DNA of 50,993 nucleotides from Minisyncoccota bacterium (GCA_017992505.1 JAGOON010000002.1:1-50993); one strand, 5' to 3'. Shown: positions 10,499-40,646, counted from the stretch's first letter. A program made the numbers and translations. The notes: generated by a model from the letters alone, not told the origin.

Positions 10499-10598
10499 GG
10501 TGGTCACGAACCGTTGATATCTCTAAAGTAGGTTACTAAGTTTGGTGGTCACGAGTTACTAAGTATAATCATTCGCTACGCTCTGATTCTACTAAGTA
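10499..10598. repeat. Cluster of GGTCACGA words and three (T/C)ACTAAGT(A) mini-palindromes
   Basis: ggtggtcacga occurs at about 10499 and 10545. ttactaagt is at 10533-10541 and 10556-10564, and ctactaagt at 10589-10597. The same words in the same order recur at 40036-40119. Confidence 0.7.
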
Positions 10599-10607
10599 CT
10601 CTCGAAT

Positions 10608-10703
10608 CTTACAGATTCTGTCCACTCATTGGATACTTTCTCGTTACACTCAAAAGTCATCTCAATGAGTCTTGCGAAATGGGTCCCATCCCATTTCTCA
10701 CCC
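10608..10703. repeat. Two-hairpin repeat module, copy 1
   Basis: cttacaga..ctgtccactcattgg - variable loop - ctcaatgagtcttgcgaaatgggtcccatcccatttctcaccc. Stems are actcattg/caatgagt and gaaatggg/cccatttc. Second copy at 17196-17295. Confidence 0.75.
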
Positions 10704-10767
10704 GTCTCGCAGTTCGTTGCGGCGGGCTAAGGCCGCAACTCACATTGCTCCGACTCGCACTTGAGCC

Positions 10768-10789
10768 GAAAGCAACGCAGGTTGCTTTC
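10768..10789. repeat. Conserved 22-nt hairpin, copy 1 of 5
   Basis: gaaagcaa-cgcagg-ttgctttc. Family consensus is G[CA]AAGCAA..GCAG..TT[GA]CTT[GT]C. Confidence 0.8.
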
Positions 10790-10790
10790 T

Positions 10791-10830
10791 AAACAAATGA
10801 CACTGGTCTCAAGACCAGTGTCATTTGTTT
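10791..10830. terminator. Intrinsic terminator directly 3' of tRNA-Val
   Basis: Perfect 18-bp palindrome aaacaaatgacactggtc-tcaa-gaccagtgtcatttgttt. Confidence 0.85.
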
Positions 10831-10837
10831 ACTCAAG

Positions 10838-16161: not shown

Positions 16162-16200
16162 CACGATGCGGTGAGCGAAATTCACAGAATTTTCATAAGA

Positions 16201-16234
16201 AAAGGACTGGTGCGCGTAGTGCACCAGTCCTTTT
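16201..16234. terminator. Intrinsic terminator hairpin
   Basis: aaaggactggtgc-gcgtagt-gcaccagtcctttt. Confidence 0.75.
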
Positions 16235-16250
16235 CTTTCCTCTGTTATTC

Positions 16251-16470
16251 TACGGGGAATCGGTCAGGAGTCGATTATTTTTATATTCGCTTCACTCGTA
16301 AAAAATATATCGCTCACGACCCTTGCTCGCGATCTCGCTTTGCTCGACAGCGCTCCGCCTTTCGATTCCCCGACGCAAGCAAAGCAGTTTACTTGCTTAG
16401 GATCACAGTTATTTTCAATAATAAAAGCGCCCTGACGGACGCTTTTATTAAGAAAATATTCTGTGATCCT
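16251..16470. repeat. 220-bp direct repeat, copy A (orphan copy of the tRNA-Glu trailer)
   Basis: Aligns with 18012-18230 with about 9 differences including one 1-nt indel. It includes conserved hairpin copy 2 (16375-16396, one stem mismatch), a terminator (16420-16449), and the last 7 nt of the tRNA-Glu 3' end (16464-16470). No intact tRNA follows. Confidence 0.9.
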
Positions 16471-16578
16471 TTGTGGTGCGAATTGGAACCAGATTGTAAA
16501 GCAAATATACTATTTAGCATTAAACACATAAGCCCCAGACTAAATTGTCTGGGGCACGGCGAAGAGCTTTTTTCTTAT

Positions 16579-16983
16579 TCAATTTTCTTCTGCAATCACT
16601 TCTGGAGCAACTGGCTCAATGATGGAACTACCTTGATTGCGGAAATTCAGTCTATCGAACGGCCAATCAATCTCGAAGTCAACCTTGTCGGGGACGACAA
16701 CATTCGGATACTTTTCCTTGAGCCGAGCTATAGCTGATGACAAGTCTTTTTTTTCATTAAACCAAATAACGGCATTCATGCCTTCATCACATATAACAGG
16801 CCATTGCGCCATTACACCACTATCTTCTGGTGTCTTGGTGACATGAATAGCATATTTTGCTGCGATATAGAGAGGGCGACATCCTTGAGTAATGAGATCT
16901 TGATCCTTTGAATTCTTCAGCAAGGCAAAGGCCGTATCGTATATATAAAGATACAGTTCTGGACGTTTTGGTTTTCTGAACAT
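16579..16983 (-). CDS. Hypothetical protein (134 aa)
   Basis: Clean ORF inside the repeat-bracketed insert, with hairpin 16531-16556 downstream. No recognisable domain. Confidence 0.5.
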   Translation of the reverse strand: MFRKPKRPELYLYIYDTAFALLKNSKDQDLITQGCRPLYIAAKYAIHVTKTPEDSGVMAQWPVICDEGMNAVIWFNEKKDLSSAIARLKEKYPNVVVPDKVDFEIDWPFDRLNFRNQGSSIIEPVAPEVIAEEN

Positions 16984-17195
16984 TTCACGTACTCCTTCTG
17001 ATTTGAAGACTACTTAAAATTCTCTACAAATGCAAGAGATATAAAAAGTCCGAAATAAATTCGGACTCTTCTTTTAAACTCGTGACTCTATGGGGAGTAT
17101 CGGTCGTTACATGACCAGTATCCGTTGTCGCTAGATTATTTCTTTGCAGTCATAATCTAGCTGGCAACAGCTTCGATTTCCACGTGAACAGTCTT

Positions 17196-17295
17196 CTTAC
17201 AGAAGCTGTCCACTCATTGGCTAGTTCGTTTCGCTTACAGCTCACAAACCAGCTCAATGAGTCTTGCGAAATGGATCCCTTCCCATTTCTCACCC
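17196..17295. repeat. Two-hairpin repeat module, copy 2
   Basis: cttacagaagctgtccactcattgg...ctcaatgagtcttgcgaaatggatcccttcccatttctcaccc. The flanks are nearly identical to copy 1 (10608-10703) and the central loop differs. Confidence 0.75.
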
Positions 17296-17313
17296 AGACT
17301 GTTTACTCGTAGA

Positions 17314-17366
17314 ATCACGAACAAAAAGAGCGCCACTTGCGTGACGCTTCTTTTTATACTCGTGAT
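17314..17366. terminator. Terminator hairpin with outer stem (tRNA-trailer-like design, no tRNA attached)
   Basis: Outer stem atcacga/tcgtgat around the inner hairpin aaaaagagcgccac-ttgc-gtgacgcttcttttt. The right arm ctcgtgatcc resembles the tRNA-Glu-proximal arm ctgtgatcct. Confidence 0.5.
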
Positions 17367-17520
17367 CCATCTCGGATTGAAGATTGAACTTTGATACTGT
17401 CTTGATGAGTTGTCTCAGGAGTATGTGGAGCTGAAGACTCCTGAGACATTAAAACGGCCCACCTAGATTTTACTGGCGGACCGTCTTTGAGTTCAGAGAA
17501 CTAATTATGCGAGAGACCTC

Positions 17521-17700
17521 TTAGACTCTGCGCGAATACCAGTCCTTAGGCAGATCCCACCAGTCTTCGACCAGTGGACTTTGATGTGTTGAAGTTGGTT
17601 TACCCTTATTGGGCGTGGTGACCTTGGGCGTCAGCGCAAACAGCACGATTGGAAACCCGATTGCGTAGAGGCATAGTGCCAAAAATCCTAGAAGTGGCAT
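17521..17700 (-). CDS. Possible small membrane protein (59 aa)
   Basis: ATG at 17700 lies 3 nt after the stop of the upstream ORF and is preceded by AGGAG. Sequence MPLLGFLALCLYAIGFPIVLFAL... has one TM helix. Below the ORF-track cutoff. Confidence 0.4.
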   Translation of the reverse strand: MPLLGFLALCLYAIGFPIVLFALTPKVTTPNKGKPTSTHQSPLVEDWWDLPKDWYSRRV

Positions 17701-17703
17701 AGC

Positions 17704-17892
17704 TCACTCCTCACTATCTTTTTGGTGTGGTTCCAAAGGATTGCTTCTAAGCTTATCCACCAAGGTATGCGCAAATACGATATTCTCAGGTGGCTTCTTT
17801 TCAGAAGGAGGGCCGTTGGTGTCAGAGAATCCAAAGCAAGGTCCTTTCTGAGGTCTTATCGCCATTAAAATGATTTCTTCTTTTGTTTTCAT
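17704..17892 (-). CDS. Hypothetical small protein (62 aa)
   Basis: ATG preceded by GGGAGAAAG. Apparently translationally coupled to the 59-aa ORF downstream. Confidence 0.4.
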   Translation of the reverse strand: MKTKEEIILMAIRPQKGPCFGFSDTNGPPSEKKPPENIVFAHTLVDKLRSNPLEPHQKDSEE

Positions 17893-18011
17893 GATCTTTC
17901 TCCCGAGCTTGCCTCCGCCAGCTCTGTTTGAGTTGACGAAAGGCAGTGGAATTGCTGTCTTTCAGTATCAAATCACATCCTGAGAATATCTCAAGTTTTC
18001 ATAGGCTTTTG

Positions 18012-18230
18012 TACGGGGAATCGGTCAGGAGTCGATTTTTTTATATTCGTTCCACTCATAAAAAATATATCGCCCACGACCCTGGCTCGCGGTCTCGCTT
18101 TGCTCGACAGCGCTCCGCCTTTCGATTCCCCGACGCAAGCAAAGCAGTTTGCTTGCTTAGGATCACAGCTATTTTCAATAATAAAAGCGCCCTGACGGAC
18201 GCTTTTATTAAGAAAATATTCTGTGATCCT
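18012..18230. repeat. 219-bp direct repeat, copy B (trailer of the intact tRNA-Glu)
   Basis: See copy A. Contains the inverted T-arm word ttcgattccccg (18121-18132), the conserved hairpin (18135-18156), the arm aggatcacag (18159-18168), a terminator (18180-18209) and the arm ctgtgatcct (18221-18230). Confidence 0.9.
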
Positions 18231-18295
18231 ACGGGGAATCGAACCCCGATTTCCAGGATGAAAACCTGATGTCCTAACCGTTAGACGATAGGACC
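18224..18295 (-). tRNA. tRNA-Glu(UUC)
   Basis: 72 nt: GGTCCTATCGTCTAACGGTTAGGACATCAGGTTTTCATCCTGGAAATCGGGGTTCGATTCCCCGTAGGATCA. No CCA. Confidence 0.93.
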
Positions 18296-19912: not shown

Positions 19913-21160
19913 TTATTTCAGCTTTGAGCGACGGAGGAAAGCTGGAACCGCACCCCAATCATCCTCATCTTCTGTATCTTCTGTTTGGTCAATCGGTTTT
20001 GGTTCGCGACGTGGGATGTCATTATGAATCGCGTTTGGGGTTGGGGTGGGGGTTGGTTCAGGAGTACGTTCTTCGGCTTTACGTGGAAGTGAATTGAATA
20101 TCTTTCCGCGTGATGGTGCTTCTTCTTCAACTTCACGTTCTGGAGTAGCTTGTTGCATCGGTGCTTGGCGAGTGATGTGGTTTCGGCTCATTCCTCCAAC
20201 ACTCTCTTCAGGGAAGCCGGTTGCGATTACGGTGACTTTGATTTCATTCTTCTTTAGTTTGTCGTCACGAATCGCTCCGAAGATCACCTTGGCGTGTGAG
20301 TCGATTGATTCTGTAATAACACGAGCGGCATCTTGAATTTCGAGCATTCCTAGGTCGTCTCCACCTGCAATGGCAAAGAGTACACCCTTGGCTCCTGTGA
20401 TAGAGACTTCAAGGAGTGGGGAATTGATAGCAGAACGAGCAGCTTCTTCCGCACGCTTTTCGCCAGAAGAGACACCAACACCCATGAGCGCCGAACCAGC
20501 ATTTTCCATGACTGAACGGATGTCTGCAAAGTCGACGTTGATGATACCTGGCATGGTGATGAGGTCTGAGATACCCTCTACTGCCTGCTTAAGTACATTG
20601 TCACACTGCTCAAAGGCATTCTTCACAGTGGTCTCCTTATCGACGATAGCGAGAAGACGGTCGTTTGGAATGGTGATAAGTGCGTCTACCTCTTTTTTGA
20701 GCTCCTCGATACCTTGGAGTGCCATACGCATACGTTCTTGTCCTTCAAAAAGGAAAGGTTTAGTTACGACACCTACCGTGAGGGCGCCAGTCTCGCGTGC
20801 GATCTTCGCAATTACAGGAGCAGAACCAGTTCCAGTTCCACCGCCCATACCGCCAGTGATGAAGACCATGTCTGAACCTTTGATAGCGTTTGCGATTTCT
20901 TCACGAGTTTCTTCGGCAGCGCGACGACCCATGTCAGGGTTACCTCCAGCACCAAGTCCACGAGTGAGGTTTTTTCCAATGTGAATCTTTTTCTTTGCAA
21001 GAGAGTTGTGGAGGTCTTGCGCGTCACTATTGACGGCGATAAATTCCACACCTTTCACCTTTGAGTTCACCATGTAGTTCACTGCGTTTCCGCCTGAACC
21101 ACCAGCACCGACGACACGAATACGTGCGAAGGATTCAACGTCTGATTTAATTTGTTCCAT
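19913..21160 (-). CDS. ftsZ: Cell division protein FtsZ
   Basis: 415 aa with the tubulin signature GGGTGTG. The Pro/Thr/Glu-rich linker ([11 protein letters not shown]) is followed by a conserved C-terminal peptide ([11 protein letters not shown]). Confidence 0.97.
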
Positions 21161-34333: not shown

Positions 34334-34687
34334 ATGGAAACAATCATCAAACAGAAACTATCATTTATAGCAATCACCACTTGGCTTATACTCGCCACAC
34401 CATGGCTTGTGGGTGCCCAAGCCTCACAAGGTCTTGAAAATCCCCTAAGAGTTAGTTCCATTCAGGAGTTATTGCTAATTCTTCTCAATCTGGTGATTAT
34501 CATTGCCACACCGATTGTCGTCCTCTTTATTATTCTTGCTGGCTTCAAATATGTAACGGCACGTGGAAACCCAGCTCAAATTCAGGAAGCAACCCAAGCA
34601 CTCACCTATGCAATTATTGGTGGGGTACTTATCATTGGGGCTGTGGCTATTGCAGATATTATTAAGAACCTCGTCAACGCATTTTAA
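34334..34687 (+). CDS. TrbC/VirB2-like small pilin-type membrane protein, paralog 1
   Basis: 117 aa. Signal peptide (…WLVGAQA) followed by two hydrophobic helices separated by a short polar loop (KYVTARGNPAQIQEATQ). Confidence 0.5.
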   Translation: METIIKQKLSFIAITTWLILATPWLVGAQASQGLENPLRVSSIQELLLILLNLVIIIATPIVVLFIILAGFKYVTARGNPAQIQEATQALTYAIIGGVLIIGAVAIADIIKNLVNAF

Positions 34688-34693
34688 ATAGGT

Positions 34694-34951
34694 ATGCAAA
34701 ACACACCAACTACTTTCAAAGGTCTTGTCGGAGTAATTATTGATTTCATCAATATCCTCATTCCCGTACTTTTTGGTCTACTCTTCTTGTATGTTATGTG
34801 GAAGATTATCGATGCCTGGATAATTAACGCTGGGAATGAGACTAAACGTGAAGAGGGTAAACAAATGGTCGTAGTGGCGGTCGTGGTATTTGTACTCATG
34901 GTAAGTGCGTGGGGAATCGTTGCGCTTATTAAACAATCAGTCTTTGGCTAG
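34694..34951 (+). CDS. TrbC/VirB2-like small membrane protein, paralog 2
   Basis: 85 aa with two TM helices and a charged loop (NAGNETKREEGKQ). Confidence 0.45.
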   Translation: MQNTPTTFKGLVGVIIDFINILIPVLFGLLFLYVMWKIIDAWIINAGNETKREEGKQMVVVAVVVFVLMVSAWGIVALIKQSVFG

Positions 34952-35004
34952 TCAAAATCTTGTTTTTACTGTTTAATAAAAGAATTAACCCTAATACATC
35001 ATTT

Positions 35005-35385
35005 ATGTCACGCATTATTGGCTTCTTGCTCCTCAATATCGCATTTATTCCTTCGCTCGCTTTCGCCCAACTTGCATCACGCCAAGGCGGTGGTGCGGGC
35101 GTTGAGCAGTTGATGAAAAATATCCTCGACTTTGCTAACTCAGTACTCATCCCATTCATTATTGGTATCGGGTTTCTTTTCTTTGTGTGGGGAATGTTCC
35201 AGTACTTCATCGCTGGTGGTGCAAATGAAGAGTCAAAGGAAAAGGGGAAGAGTCTTATGATCAATGCCACTATTGGTTTTGTTGTTATCATTGTCTTCTT
35301 TGGCATCATCAATATGCTTACAAGCAGCACTGGTCTTGAAGGGCAGTACATCAAAAACGTCCCTACGGTAATCGTTCCAGAATAA
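35005..35385 (+). CDS. TrbC/VirB2-like small pilin-type membrane protein, paralog 3
   Basis: 126 aa from the ATG at 35005. Signal peptide ...PSLAFA, a Gly-run, and the core LIPFIIGIGFLFFVWGMFQYFIAGGANEESKEKGKSLM. Confidence 0.55.
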   Translation: MSRIIGFLLLNIAFIPSLAFAQLASRQGGGAGVEQLMKNILDFANSVLIPFIIGIGFLFFVWGMFQYFIAGGANEESKEKGKSLMINATIGFVVIIVFFGIINMLTSSTGLEGQYIKNVPTVIVPE

Positions 35386-35486
35386 TTGGTTATGCACAGG
35401 CACTGTCATTTAATGACAAAAAGTCTTTGTTTCTCAATTATAATTAAACAAACGTAGTCACGTTGTTAATCATTTACATAGTTAGT

Positions 35487-35876
35487 ATGAAACGAATTAT
35501 CTATACACTAAGCAGTTCAGCTTTATTAATGGCTCCATTTGCGCATGCGCAAATTACTTCACCAGGTGGAGGCGGTGGCGAGTTTCAAGAACTTCTAAAG
35601 AATATTCTTGACTTCACAAACACCGTTCTCATTCCATTCATTATTGGTATCGGCTTCCTTGTATTTGTGTGGGGAATGTTCCAGTACTTCATCGCTGGTG
35701 GTGCTAACGATGACAAGAAGGAAAAGGGAAAGAGCTTAATGATTTACGCAACGCTTGGCTTTGTACTCATTATTGTTTTCTGGGGTATTGTCAACCTCCT
35801 CACAAGTAGTCTCTTCAGTAATTCAGATATTACTGGTCCAAATAATGTACCGACAGTACCAAACACTATTCCTTAA
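35487..35876 (+). CDS. TrbC/VirB2-like small pilin-type membrane protein, paralog 4
   Basis: 129 aa from the ATG at 35487. Signal peptide ...APFAHA. The core is nearly identical to paralog 3, with a 41-nt identical DNA run at 35182-35222 and 35662-35702. Confidence 0.55.
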   Translation: MKRIIYTLSSSALLMAPFAHAQITSPGGGGGEFQELLKNILDFTNTVLIPFIIGIGFLVFVWGMFQYFIAGGANDDKKEKGKSLMIYATLGFVLIIVFWGIVNLLTSSLFSNSDITGPNNVPTVPNTIP

Positions 35877-35892
35877 GTAGTGAACACTATAC

Positions 35893-35927
35893 AAAAAACG
35901 ACAGGTCTTCCACCTGTCGTTTTTTTG
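35893..35927 (+). terminator. Intrinsic terminator after pilin paralog 4
   Basis: aaaaaacgacaggt-cttcc-acctgtcgtttttt. It lies inside the GTG-started track ORF 35880.., which argues for the later start of paralog 5. Confidence 0.8.
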
Positions 35928-35965
35928 TATTCCCACCAATTGCTTCTAAAACTAATAACCTATGC

Positions 35966-35971
35966 TAGTAT
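35966..35971 (+). promoter_or_regulatory. -10-like TAGTAT, 7 nt upstream of the ATG at 35979
   Basis: TAGTAT-ttcaaat-ATG. Confidence 0.35.
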
Positions 35972-35978
35972 TTCAAAT

Positions 35979-36317
35979 ATGTCACCAGCACAGCAAACAG
36001 CAGTTGCGGAAGCCAATAGTTTTGTTGATAAATTTAACAACGCCATACTGTTTCCGCTTATTGCACTTTTATCGGCTGTCGCATTTTTTATATTTTTGTT
36101 TGGTTGTGCTGAGTATGTCATGAACGCCAGCAATACCGCAGGTCGCGAGAAGGGTATAAAGCACATTACGTGGGGAATTATCGGTTTGGTGGTAATGGTC
36201 TCGGCCTGGGCGATTCTCCGTATCGCAGCGGGGACGTTTGGCTTGGATCAAGAGCTCAGCTGTGCCAATGACCCAACTGGAAGTGGTTGTGATTCAGTGT
36301 TTCAGGTTAGCCCATAA
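35979..36317 (+). CDS. TrbC/VirB2-like small membrane protein, paralog 5 (no signal peptide seen)
   Basis: 112 aa with two TM helices and a polar loop (NASNTAGREKGIKH). The Cys-containing tail reads CANDPTGSGC. Confidence 0.45.
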   Translation: MSPAQQTAVAEANSFVDKFNNAILFPLIALLSAVAFFIFLFGCAEYVMNASNTAGREKGIKHITWGIIGLVVMVSAWAILRIAAGTFGLDQELSCANDPTGSGCDSVFQVSP

Positions 36318-39904: not shown

Positions 39905-39985
39905 TGCGCAAGAGAGGACTCGAACCTCCACGGATTGCTCCACTGGTTCCTAAGACCAGCGCGGCTACCATTACGCCACTTGCGC
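39905..39985 (-). tRNA. tRNA-Leu(UAG)
   Basis: 81 nt with a long variable arm: GCGCAAGTGGCGTAATGGTAGCCGCGCTGGTCTTAGGAACCAGTGGAGCAATCCGTGGAGGTTCGAGTCCTCTCTTGCGCA. TATACT lies 13 nt upstream. Confidence 0.93.
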
Positions 39986-40035
39986 AATGCAGGCGAGTAT
40001 AGCAGATTTCGTAGAAATGGGGAATTGGCTCTGTG

Positions 40036-40119
40036 GTCACGAATCACTAAGTATAGCCCCTTCCCTGACGCAGGTTACTAAGTGTTCTCACCAGCTTCGC
40101 TGGTTGCGAGCACTAAGTA
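40036..40119. repeat. GGTCACGA word plus three (T/C)ACTAAGT(A) mini-palindromes (second cluster)
   Basis: ggtcacga at 40036-40043, tcactaagt at 40044-40052, ttactaagt at 40075-40083 and gcactaagt at 40110-40118. Word order parallels 10499-10598. Confidence 0.7.
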
Positions 40120-40194
40120 CCTGCTGTCCCAGCTCGACTGTTTTTCTCCCTAGGAAAGGGGAGAAAAACATGTCTCCGCTTCACATACGAGCAC

Positions 40195-40216
40195 GAAAGC
40201 AAAGCAGTTTGCTTTC
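40195..40216. repeat. Conserved 22-nt hairpin, copy 4 of 5
   Basis: gaaagcaa-agcagt-ttgctttc. Confidence 0.8.
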
Positions 40217-40217
40217 T

Positions 40218-40255
40218 AAAGAAAATGACCATTCCTAGGAATGGTCATTTTCTTT
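40218..40255. terminator. Intrinsic terminator directly 3' of tRNA-Lys
   Basis: aaagaaaatgaccattcc-ta-ggaatggtcattttcttt. Confidence 0.85.
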
Positions 40256-40264
40256 ACTCATATG

Positions 40265-40337
40265 TGCGCCCTCAAGGGCTCGAACCTTGGACCGTCTCCT
40301 TAAGAGGGAGCTGCTCTACCAACTGAGCTAAGGGCGC
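40265..40337 (-). tRNA. tRNA-Lys(CUU)
   Basis: 73 nt: GCGCCCTTAGCTCAGTTGGTAGAGCAGCTCCCTCTTAAGGAGACGGTCCAAGGTTCGAGCCCTTGAGGGCGCA. Confidence 0.93.
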
Positions 40338-40483
40338 ATATCTTGGTCGGGAAGAGTGTACCTGAAAACGTTAGAGCTGACAAGCGCAAGACTCGGTCAC
40401 AGATAAATTTCTTTCAGAAATTTTCCGCGACCCCGCCTCACTCATTCGCTGGCTCACATCGTTCCGGCTTTCGAGTCCCGCCC

Positions 40484-40505
40484 GCAAGCAAAGCAGTTTG
40501 CTTGC
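40484..40505. repeat. Conserved 22-nt hairpin, copy 5 of 5
   Basis: gcaagcaa-agcagt-ttgcttgc, identical to the copy at 18135-18156. Confidence 0.8.
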
Positions 40506-40507
40506 TT

Positions 40508-40568
40508 CCCGGCACTATTAAAATCAAAACCGCACATGTGTGCGGCTAGGATTTTATATAGTGCCGGG
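40508..40568. terminator. Interrupted palindrome/terminator that begins inside tRNA-Leu(UAA)
   Basis: cccggcactat..taaaatc..ccgcaca-tg-tgtgcgg..gatttta..atagtgccggg. The right arm is the tRNA acceptor 3' strand plus trailer. Confidence 0.75.
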
Positions 40569-40646
40569 AGCGGGACTCGAACCCGCACGCCGTTTAACTG
40601 ACAAAGGATTTTAAGTCCTTCGCGTCTACCATTCCGCCATCCCGGC
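40562..40646 (-). tRNA. tRNA-Leu(UAA)
   Basis: 85 nt with a long variable arm: GCCGGGATGGCGGAATGGTAGACGCGAAGGACTTAAAATCCTTTGTCAGTTAAACGGCGTGCGGGTTCGAGTCCCGCTCCCGGCA. Confidence 0.93.

Follow-up and report, generated by a model that had tools for sequence, protein, structure and literature searches.

An antisense copy of the tRNA-Leu(UAA) 3' end is part of an inserted, target-matched element belonging to an apparently undescribed family at gene 3' ends in Patescibacteria

The attC sites of integrons have conserved R''/R' boxes (AAC/GTT), and the attP(+) hairpin of CTX-phi mimics one fixed site, dif. Elements of the IS200/IS605 type use a guide of 4-5 nt and have subterminal hairpins, without long direct repeats. 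tRNA-targeting islands and gene-end-replacing elements, such as e14 and phage 21 at icd and the tycheposons as outlined in bioRxiv 10.1101/2020.12.28.424599, insert at the 3' ends of tRNA genes or of conserved protein genes. In the bridge RNAs of IS110 elements the 5' side of the loops base-pairs to the DNA's bottom strand, and the 3' side to the top strand (PMC11208160). The units described here share features with each of these systems and differ from each of them.

The sequence analysed, here called the window, is the whole stretch of 50,993 nt from a Minisyncoccota bacterium, and positions are counted from its first nucleotide. The antisense copy present behind tRNA-Leu(UAA) is one part of an inserted element of roughly 185 bp (40376-40560). 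The target gene of this unit is on the minus strand (40561/2-40646; ARAGORN, and 63.8 bits with the Rfam tRNA model). Its end, S1 (40558-40579, minus strand, assigned from the sequence), runs from C56 through the 3' strand of the T-stem, the 3' strand of the acceptor and the discriminator to a C and 3 nt of the trailer. On the same strand there is an intrinsic-terminator-like hairpin, T1 (ccgcaca/tgtgcgg followed by a T-run, 40528-40547), found by terminator scoring and in folds, which forms the apex of a palindrome between S1 and the antisense segment, A. Both parts of A are on the minus strand. The first, b' (40507-40518), is tcccggcactat on the plus strand and is antisense to the acceptor 3' strand, discriminator and trailer, while the second, a' (40470-40481), is ttcgagtcccgc on the plus strand and is antisense to the T-loop and the T-stem 3' strand. 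Each part matches tRNA-Leu at 12/12 positions, and together the 12+12 nt correspond to 24 nt that are contiguous in the tRNA, from the T-loop to the C and three trailer bases. At the T-stem/acceptor boundary A is split by H, a 9-bp hairpin GCAAGCAAA-GCAG-TTTGCTTGC (40484-40505, no strand assigned) with a GCAG loop that is CTGC in gene sense. The spacers, read on the plus strand, are cc between a' and H and t between H and tcccggcactat.

Next to a' is a structured domain, designated type A (40395-40469, minus strand), which seeded an nhmmer profile and shows covariation in 50 homologues. It consists of a P1 helix (GCC..GGC) with an internal loop rich in GA and a hairpin, hp2, then a P2 helix (GGTC..GACC) with a hairpin, hp1, and terminates in ...CTGTGACC. 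At the far end is S2 (40376-40394, minus strand), a decayed direct repeat of S1 (GAGTCTTGCGCTTGTCAGC versus GAGTCCCGCTCCCGGCACT, about 12/19), which was recognised from the sequence and from intact S2 copies in other units. Promoter scoring places a promoter-like site for the next gene, tRNA-Lys, at 40355-40383 on the minus strand, which, in the orientation of the gene, puts A, H and the domain between a terminator and the next promoter. The arms of the palindrome are 40508-18/40558-68, 40519-25/40550-56 and 40530-36/39-45, and both strands of the region fold into a three-way junction, with z of about -10 relative to dinucleotide shuffles. Only 40528-40547 has a terminator-like score. That the structure is an intrinsic terminator and nothing more can be rejected, as this would leave the target copy of 24 nt, H, the domain and also S2 without explanation. 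The coordinates given in the original prediction for the tRNA, a', the hairpin, b' and the palindrome arms are exact, with only the T at 40507 to be added as a match; its placing of a terminator at the apex of 40508-40568 agrees with the terminator-like score on the tRNA strand, and both the position of the hairpin at the T-stem/acceptor junction and the same design at tRNA-Glu are seen.

Five units are present behind the 8 tRNAs of the window, where the H pattern occurs in 4 copies against 0 expected; a fifth H variant, behind tRNA-Val, has two compensatory stem changes. All of the other units are likewise on the minus strand. The unit behind tRNA-Lys(CUU) (40071-40256), identified by sequence, H variant and domain profile, comprises T1 (40217-40256), the H variant (40195-40216), an A segment (40182-40191, cacatacgag, against the tRNA end and trailer CACATATGAG) and a type-A domain (40071-40178). 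Behind tRNA-Glu(UUC), unit U2 (18012-18222) has the same design as the Leu unit and is found by the domain profile; it contains b' (18158-18168), H (18135-18156), a' (18121-18132), the domain and a truncated S2 (18012-18023). Unit U1 (16250-16470) has H at 16375-16396 and a decayed S2 (GATTCCCCGTAGAATAAC) at its far end, and is 96% identical to U2, 1760 bp away. A 1.54-kb insertion between the two (16471-18011, no strand assigned) splits their common S copy, leaving GATTCCCCGTA on one side and GGATCACAG on the other, and holds fragments of other units and a 134-aa ORF for which there is no Pfam match. The unit behind tRNA-Val(GAC) (10547-10836; H variant, flank covariation and domain profile) has T1 at 10790-10831, the H variant GAAAGCAAC-GCAG-GTTGCTTTC at 10768-10789, an A segment at 10756-10765 (cgcacttgag, equal to the tRNA end and trailer) and a composite domain.

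A scan for the H core in one genome per species identified at least 120 loci, and among the matches listed the great majority are in Patescibacteria (Saccharibacteria, Paceibacterota, Kaiser-, Nomura- and Moranii-bacteria, and others). From the size of the scanned collection about 70 random matches to an 18-mer would be expected, so that some of the H matches outside the CPR are noise. One set of matches in Campylobacterales is a separate repeat. Among the matches listed, a convergent tRNA is present within 150 nt of 63 of 130 H copies, and within 400 nt of a further 8, and the tRNA-linked copies span about 19 amino-acid identities. At the 63 loci, all from other genomes, the 20 nt 5' of H have a mean longest exact match of 9.1 nt to the 3' end of their own tRNA versus 5.2 nt to the others, with matches of at least 9 nt in 57% and 7%, respectively. 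For the 16 nt 3' of H the means are 8.0 nt versus 4.4 nt, and matches of at least 7 nt are found in 48% versus 5%.

Downstream inverted copies are present for 79 of the 230 tRNAs in the fetched loci, compared to 3 in mismatched controls, downstream direct repeats with a score of at least 11 for 86 (10 in controls), and both together for 57; these about 200 loci were collected via the H motif or TrxB synteny, so the frequencies are biased and are not genome-wide estimates. Across the family the direct repeat at tRNAs typically extends from C56 to the end of the tRNA or a few nucleotides beyond. Chance as an explanation of the matches is rejected by shuffles and by cross-pairing controls. The element family is large, is found in the Patescibacteria on the 3' ends of tRNA genes, ftsZ and rplE, and is apparently undescribed. 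No description of it was found in the literature by sequence or by topic, absence there being no proof of novelty. Viral contigs, scanned twice for a phage origin, showed nothing beyond chance matches in coding sequence, and the domain profile found 0 copies in the second set.

In gene sense the order of a unit is S1, often a terminator T1, A, often split by H, the conserved two-arm structured domain and S2, usually a decaying direct copy of the gene end, beyond which are what appear to be the original trailer and terminator of the gene. Units are 130-330 bp in size. The gene end is not destroyed by the element, since the gene is still completed by an intact S1. Over 1033 aligned positions there are only 20 mismatches between A and S, 11 of them transversions; a transition bias among them, 2 vs 7, involves too few mismatches to show which strand folds. 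The sequence of A complements the 3' strand of the gene and is not copied from the 5' strand of the tRNA, and its complementarity continues into the unprocessed tRNA trailer. In the other direction it reaches past the boundary of the repeat into the upstream gene, to T54-T55 in tRNAs and into the TGGGG codons in ftsZ, which makes A complementary to the target in its uninterrupted form. In at least 20 units H keeps a 9-bp stem and the same loop with wholly different stem sequences, and some units have a different hairpin at this position, or none. There are two types of domain: type A ends ...ACTTAGTnACTYGTGACC, while type B has a short hairpin with a YUGUAAG loop. Compact units, among them those behind tRNA-Lys and tRNA-Val in the window and many at tRNA-Glu, pair with the discriminator and trailer only and have little or no S2. 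Not every copy fits a two-ended model, and the unit boundaries in the compact types are uncertain. Tandem units are present at loci L008, L016, L074 and L111.

The nhmmer profile of the type-A domain found 100 copies in roughly 200 fetched loci. Of these, 45 come after a tRNA of the same strand; the other 55 have no adjoining tRNA, many of the latter being present after the stop codon of ftsZ. In the TrxB-linked relatives a domain lies within 320 nt of the ftsZ 3' end at 28 of 55 distinct ends, leaving 27 without one, including the ftsZ of the window at 19913. Antisense blocks of 9 nt or more are found at 24 of the 28 filled sites versus 5 of the 27 others. In these units S1 comprises about 35 nt at the end of the coding sequence, A comes after the stop codon and S2 after ...GTGACC; the A and the S copies both derive from coding sequence. 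A third kind of target is provided by rplE, whose 3' end is used in L071 and L080.

The S2 copies at ftsZ in L156, L176 and L187 still encode the 11-residue end stretch, and agree with S1 at 28/39, 38/39 and 26/39 nt, respectively; S2 is nearly intact in L150 and L159 and decayed in the remaining loci. The differences in L156 and L187 include a TCA/AGT serine switch. Such synonymous codon switches between S1 and S2 led to rejection of target-site duplication by staggered cuts. The sequences would fit S1 and S2 being gene ends from different lineages, one borne by the element and the other resident and displaced, and the codon differences suggest that it was S1 that the element brought with it. 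Codon choice in the element-borne ftsZ end showed no difference in relation to the central hairpin, in a comparison for which the classification of filled and empty sites was faulty. There is no terminator between the ftsZ stop codon and A, and units of this type are therefore probably co-transcribed with the gene, which would allow them a role as RNA.

Folding of 50 type-A domains with RNAalifold predicted 15 base pairs, of which 14 have compensatory double changes. P1 is made up of GGC/GCC and GC/GC around a conserved GGA/GA internal loop, and the very end of the unit is formed by P2 (GGUC/GACC). From the aligned copies, the domain evolves by compensatory base-pair changes. Over 24 domain pairs there are 1019 Watson-Crick, 30 G-U (in gene sense) and 15 A-C combinations, a modest G-U excess (p = 0.036), with G-U making up only about 3% of pairs. 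The gene-sense domain folds more stably in 47 of 62 units, and the stretch from A through the domain to S2 in L130 forms a 17-bp closing helix with two arms (z -7.3). The triloop C-GNA-G, an unusually stable mini-hairpin motif of DNA, caps hp1 in 32 of the 50 copies versus 8.2 in shuffles. By GC skew, the gene-sense strand lies on the C-rich strand. The scarcity of G-U, the pure Watson-Crick pairing of A with S, the C-GNA-G caps and the location of the window unit between a terminator and a promoter-like site make us lean towards single-stranded DNA, rather than RNA, as the molecule that may fold. The probable co-transcription of the ftsZ-type units speaks against this.

Orthologous sites may have a unit or lack one. 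Units also form tandem arrays and enclose cargo, and they use the ends of both tRNA and protein genes. At the tRNA-Glu sites next to trxB, filled and empty states do not track TrxB identity: the site is empty in L131, L136, L139, L141, L148, L149 and L190, has a T-loop-type unit with a perfect 19-nt repeat in L130/L144 and L156, and holds compact units elsewhere. Similar domains are found at different targets. The hp1 of the Leu unit in the window is nearly identical to that of the tRNA-Glu unit in L152, and the Leu and Ser units of L047 have about 75% identity over 173 nt by BLAST, and more than this across the domain by eye, and they differ completely in S, in A and in the stems of the hairpin. 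Between the orthologous units of L130 and L152, A changes together with the tRNA acceptor. Cargo is present between S copies in three inserts, these being the 134-aa ORF in the window, two membrane ORFs in L051 and, in L102, an island of an AEP-TOTE primase-helicase, Fic and SWIM. Neither an excised form nor a fresh pair of empty and filled sites was seen, short-read contigs being broken at these loci. No recombinase or transposase was identified in the window or in some further 20 kb of its contig (GCA_018063005.1; about 70 of 79.6 kb were covered in all), nor was a recombinase ORF common to the flanks of the at least 120 loci. There is no integrase in or near any of about 200 loci, and the cargo islands of the window, L051 and L102 are without a recombinase.

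The units are, then, an inserted, target-matched and modular repeated family flanked by direct repeats of gene ends. That the matches behind the Glu and Leu tRNAs exceed chance and are each tailored to their own tRNA was rightly predicted, as the own-tRNA means and controls demonstrate, as was the recurrence of the design at tRNAs of unrelated sequence, which now extends to the 19 or so identities among the matches listed. The prediction had also taken the unrelated sequences of the two copies as an argument against a single repeated element. Given the conserved modules, the flanking direct repeats, the tandem and cargo-bearing units and the filled and empty sites, this argument fails, and the inverted copies are variable modules of one family that has a conserved hairpin and domain. 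Nor is this a design of tRNA trailers, the same architecture being built from the last codons of ftsZ and rplE. The possibility raised at the time that the Glu and Leu cases might be isolated is contradicted by the 79 of 230 tRNAs with a downstream inverted copy. A second possibility, that of a larger mobile repeat containing tRNA-like sequence incidentally, is borne out as to the mobile repeat and mistaken as to the incidental, in that every copy has a sequence matched to its target.

Comparison with the IS110 bridge RNA finds a similar target-matching arrangement of guide, hairpin and guide, and a compact scaffold of about 150-250 nt. An identity with such an RNA was rejected on the grounds that a' and b' copy one strand and are contiguous in the target. 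The units also differ from IS110 in having neither a donor loop nor a recombinase and in carrying a copy of their own target; no ORF for a DEDD/Tnp recombinase is present in the window or the extra contig sequence, and no ORF is common across the loci. Like the tRNA-targeting islands, the family has gene-end direct repeats, a replacement end with synonymous differences, tandem accretion and members consisting of cargo only. The direct repeats of tRNA 3' ends that characterise tyrosine-integrase islands are present, while an integrase gene within the element is not. The family is further set apart from those islands by having no integrase nearby, one scaffold for many targets and an internal antisense copy of the target.

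With attC and the CTX-phi attP(+) the units share a conserved structure of variable sequence, in which inverted target-like segments fold to a duplex site, and, with integron cassettes, arrays with small or no cargo and a recombinase outside the cassette. They differ in that the paired arm copies whichever gene end the unit occupies, and in that arrays are found at many loci rather than at one attI. Inspection of sequence and alignment, without an attC model, found no conserved AAC/GTT corresponding to the R'' (RYYYAAC) and R' (GTTRRRY) boxes, and the basal helix is the variable S:A pairing. Resemblances to IS200/IS605 elements and their miniatures are subterminal hairpins, a base-pairing guide next to a hairpin, a right end that is target-like and an enzyme acting in trans. 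The guide in the units is 10-35 nt, however, 5-8 times longer, and long direct repeats are atypical there; no TnpA is found near any unit in about 200 loci.

It is proposed, with a probability of about 60%, that the unit is a non-autonomous, site-specific integrative element in which the folded S:A arm provides a site that matches the target. As no recombinase has been found, the mechanism is put forward as a hypothesis. In an excised circle S would lie between the end of P2 and A. Folding of a single strand of it would give an S:A arm that includes T1 and H, a second arm of P1 with hp2 and a third of P2 with hp1, such that the branch point of the junction would be the boundary between element and target. 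A would act as a target-matching guide or as a folded attachment site; while single-stranded it could swap partners, from the S of the element itself to the chromosomal S, and a structure-specific enzyme supplied in trans would exchange strands at the junction. Quasi-palindrome template switching in the S1-A palindrome probably keeps A identical to the adjacent S1, and could also rewrite A after a mis-targeted insertion. Against the model, it does not account for the rewriting of A and S for a new target.

A bolder version, which is speculative and has the odds against it, is that these are a class of protein-less cassettes programmed by nucleic acid. A folded strand of ~150-300 nt would carry a guide of 10-35 nt (A), a replacement gene end (S) and the conserved scaffold, a host or unlinked enzyme would insert it where the guide pairs, and template switching would rewrite the guide with the new flank as its source. 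If this is true, one scaffold could spread to all the tRNA genes of a reduced genome and to several of its essential protein genes.

The same observations can be read in other ways. It is unlikely, although several features would suit it, that the domain is the scaffold of a gene-sense non-coding RNA, made as a 3' UTR or by read-through, with A as its guide, which recruits a recombinase or nuclease encoded elsewhere in the manner of the IS110 bridge RNAs or the omega/reRNAs of IscB and TnpB. Strong compensatory covariation, the excess of G-U over A-C on the gene-sense strand, the greater stability of that strand in 47/62 units, the probable co-transcription of ftsZ-type units and an arrangement of guide, hairpin and guide that resembles a binding loop would all be expected of such an RNA. 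Both halves of A, however, pair with the same DNA strand, unlike the loops of bridge RNAs (PMC11208160). Good terminators precede A in many of the tRNA-type units, and the domain in the window is between a terminator and a promoter-like site; G-U pairs are as few as about 3%, and the C-GNA-G triloops are a motif of DNA type. In Rfam 15 only the tRNAs of the window reach the gathering score, with nothing credible at E<=10 over 39980-40570 and 16200-18240, and there is no match to the IS605-orfB and HEARO RNAs, if these are in release 15. Quite unlikely, too, is that the units are scars, the attL/attR and attP arms of conventional integrase islands after internal deletion, with an A that has no function, its origin and its perfect match both being due to quasi-palindrome template switching around the hairpin of the terminator. 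This would account for the direct repeats of tRNA 3' ends from the T-loop, which are the classic signature of tRNA-targeting integrases, for the cargo islands flanked by S copies, for an A that follows the adjacent S1 even where S2 has decayed, and for the alternative gene end borne by the element at ftsZ, as with e14 and phage 21 at icd. It would not account for the lack of an integrase in or near about 200 loci, nor for the compensatory stem changes, which double-stranded arms bound by protein do not require. A single domain family serving about 19 tRNA identities, ftsZ and rplE is ill-suited to sequence-specific integrases, and independent lineages and targets repeatedly show the antisense copy with a hairpin placed at a fixed position.

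Explanations resting on the biology of tRNA are excluded by the use of the ftsZ and rplE ends. Thus a cis-regulatory device of the host, in which 3' processing, termination or tRNA folding would be controlled by a trailer folded back onto the 3' end of the tRNA, is highly improbable and already largely refuted, even if a long hairpin that takes in the tRNA 3' end, with a terminator at its apex, is widespread behind tRNAs. The same architecture is found on coding ends, close relatives lack it at the same tRNA, the complementarity is pure Watson-Crick and runs into the trailer, and tandem copies, displaced gene ends and cargo do not fit a processing signal. Pairing with the trailer, together with the use of ftsZ and rplE, also led to rejection of a T-box-like RNA that senses or processes tRNA. 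A primer-binding site for mature tRNA was rejected because the match runs into the trailer instead of CCA. As A is the complement of the 3' strand, the G:U identity pairs are lost, both Glu G2:U71 and Ala G3:U70 becoming A:U in the A pairing; a tRNA mimic or aminoacylatable minihelix was rejected for this reason and because the T-loop is fully paired and protein genes are used as well.

Should the reading as an integrative element hold, the Patescibacteria, which are expected to have very small genomes, would be densely populated by a miniature element, and the ends of essential genes would be targeted without harm by a self-complementary module on a structured scaffold that has no enzyme of its own. 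It would be a natural example of target choice by a long guide outside CRISPR, OMEGA and IS110, and a testable candidate for a new chemistry of programmable integration. Were the idea of a guide to fail, there would still be an undescribed and abundant structured repeat that marks hot spots of insertion at gene ends. The units may also be the practical explanation for tRNA fragments and "pseudo" gene ends in annotations of Patescibacteria, and for the breaks in their assemblies at tRNA genes. In a search for strain-level empty sites, every contig with the identical protein, TrxB or rhodanese, broke off within the tRNAs.

All of the independent short-read contigs that carry an identical TrxB or rhodanese protein end at tRNAs, either at tRNA-Glu (within the gene or immediately ahead of it) or within tRNA-Leu(UAG). 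These are L122-L124, L216, and L217, Logan contigs from the same organism as the window. Assembly breaks at tRNA genes appear to result from the repeated units.

Behind tRNA-Glu(UUC), a 1.54 kb insertion (window 16471-18011) interrupts the gene-end copy that is common to the sister units U1 and U2. There are pieces of other unit types inside this insertion, which contains a type-B-like fragment (17085-17135) and a fragment similar to window 10607-10703 (17195-17295), and its gene-sense end is the tRNA-like ...GGTTCCAATTCGCACCA. The 134 aa ORF that it carries on the minus strand (16579-16983) is without a Pfam match. The unit behind tRNA-Val (window 10500-10700) is composite: a GGTCACGA...ACTAAGT module occurs in it twice, alongside a type-B-like hairpin (cgaatcTTACAgattc), and a long additional segment comes next, a make-up that suggests nested or fused units.

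At the locus L102, an island bounded by two tRNA 3'-end copies is present ~4 kb downstream of tRNA-Arg(GCG). It encodes an AEP-TOTE primase-helicase of 709 aa, a Fic-domain protein, and a SWIM zinc-finger protein, with no recombinase within the island, and it ends in a type-B unit and then a type-A unit.

Immediately 3' of the ftsZ stop codon in two further loci, L142 and L146, there are 4 to 5 tandem copies of a ~95 nt unit (agcaa[a/c]gagcggaagcgactatgctgaatttatgtc...ccctttcctagg...), which occupy the same insertion site after this stop codon. The loop motifs of these units resemble those of hp2 and hp1, the hairpins of the type-A domain, and the units are not matched by the profile of that domain. 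A distinct repeat of ~200 nt is found in Campylobacterales MAGs (L006, L011, L015, L018, L023, L052, L066, L106, L107, and L108), where it has exactly the same hairpin core as the units (AAGCAAAGCAGTTTGCTT), flanked by A and T runs. This repeat has long-range inverted repeats of its own, such as ..CACTCAATGGCGACAAAGG.., and no adjoining tRNAs.

Elsewhere in the window, four paralogous genes in a row (34334-36317) match PF18895, a type IV secretion pilin family that is TrbC/VirB2-like, and a 263 nt repeat lies inside these paralogues (35065-35327 and 35547-35809). Past the window end on the same contig, directly after the last gene of the window, is an ORF of 2112 aa (11347-17685 of L230, a stretch of that contig) with no Pfam match on record. 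Several more ORFs are present downstream of it, the first two of which are without a Pfam match, and later ones have fn3/dockerin-like or DUF7743 domains.
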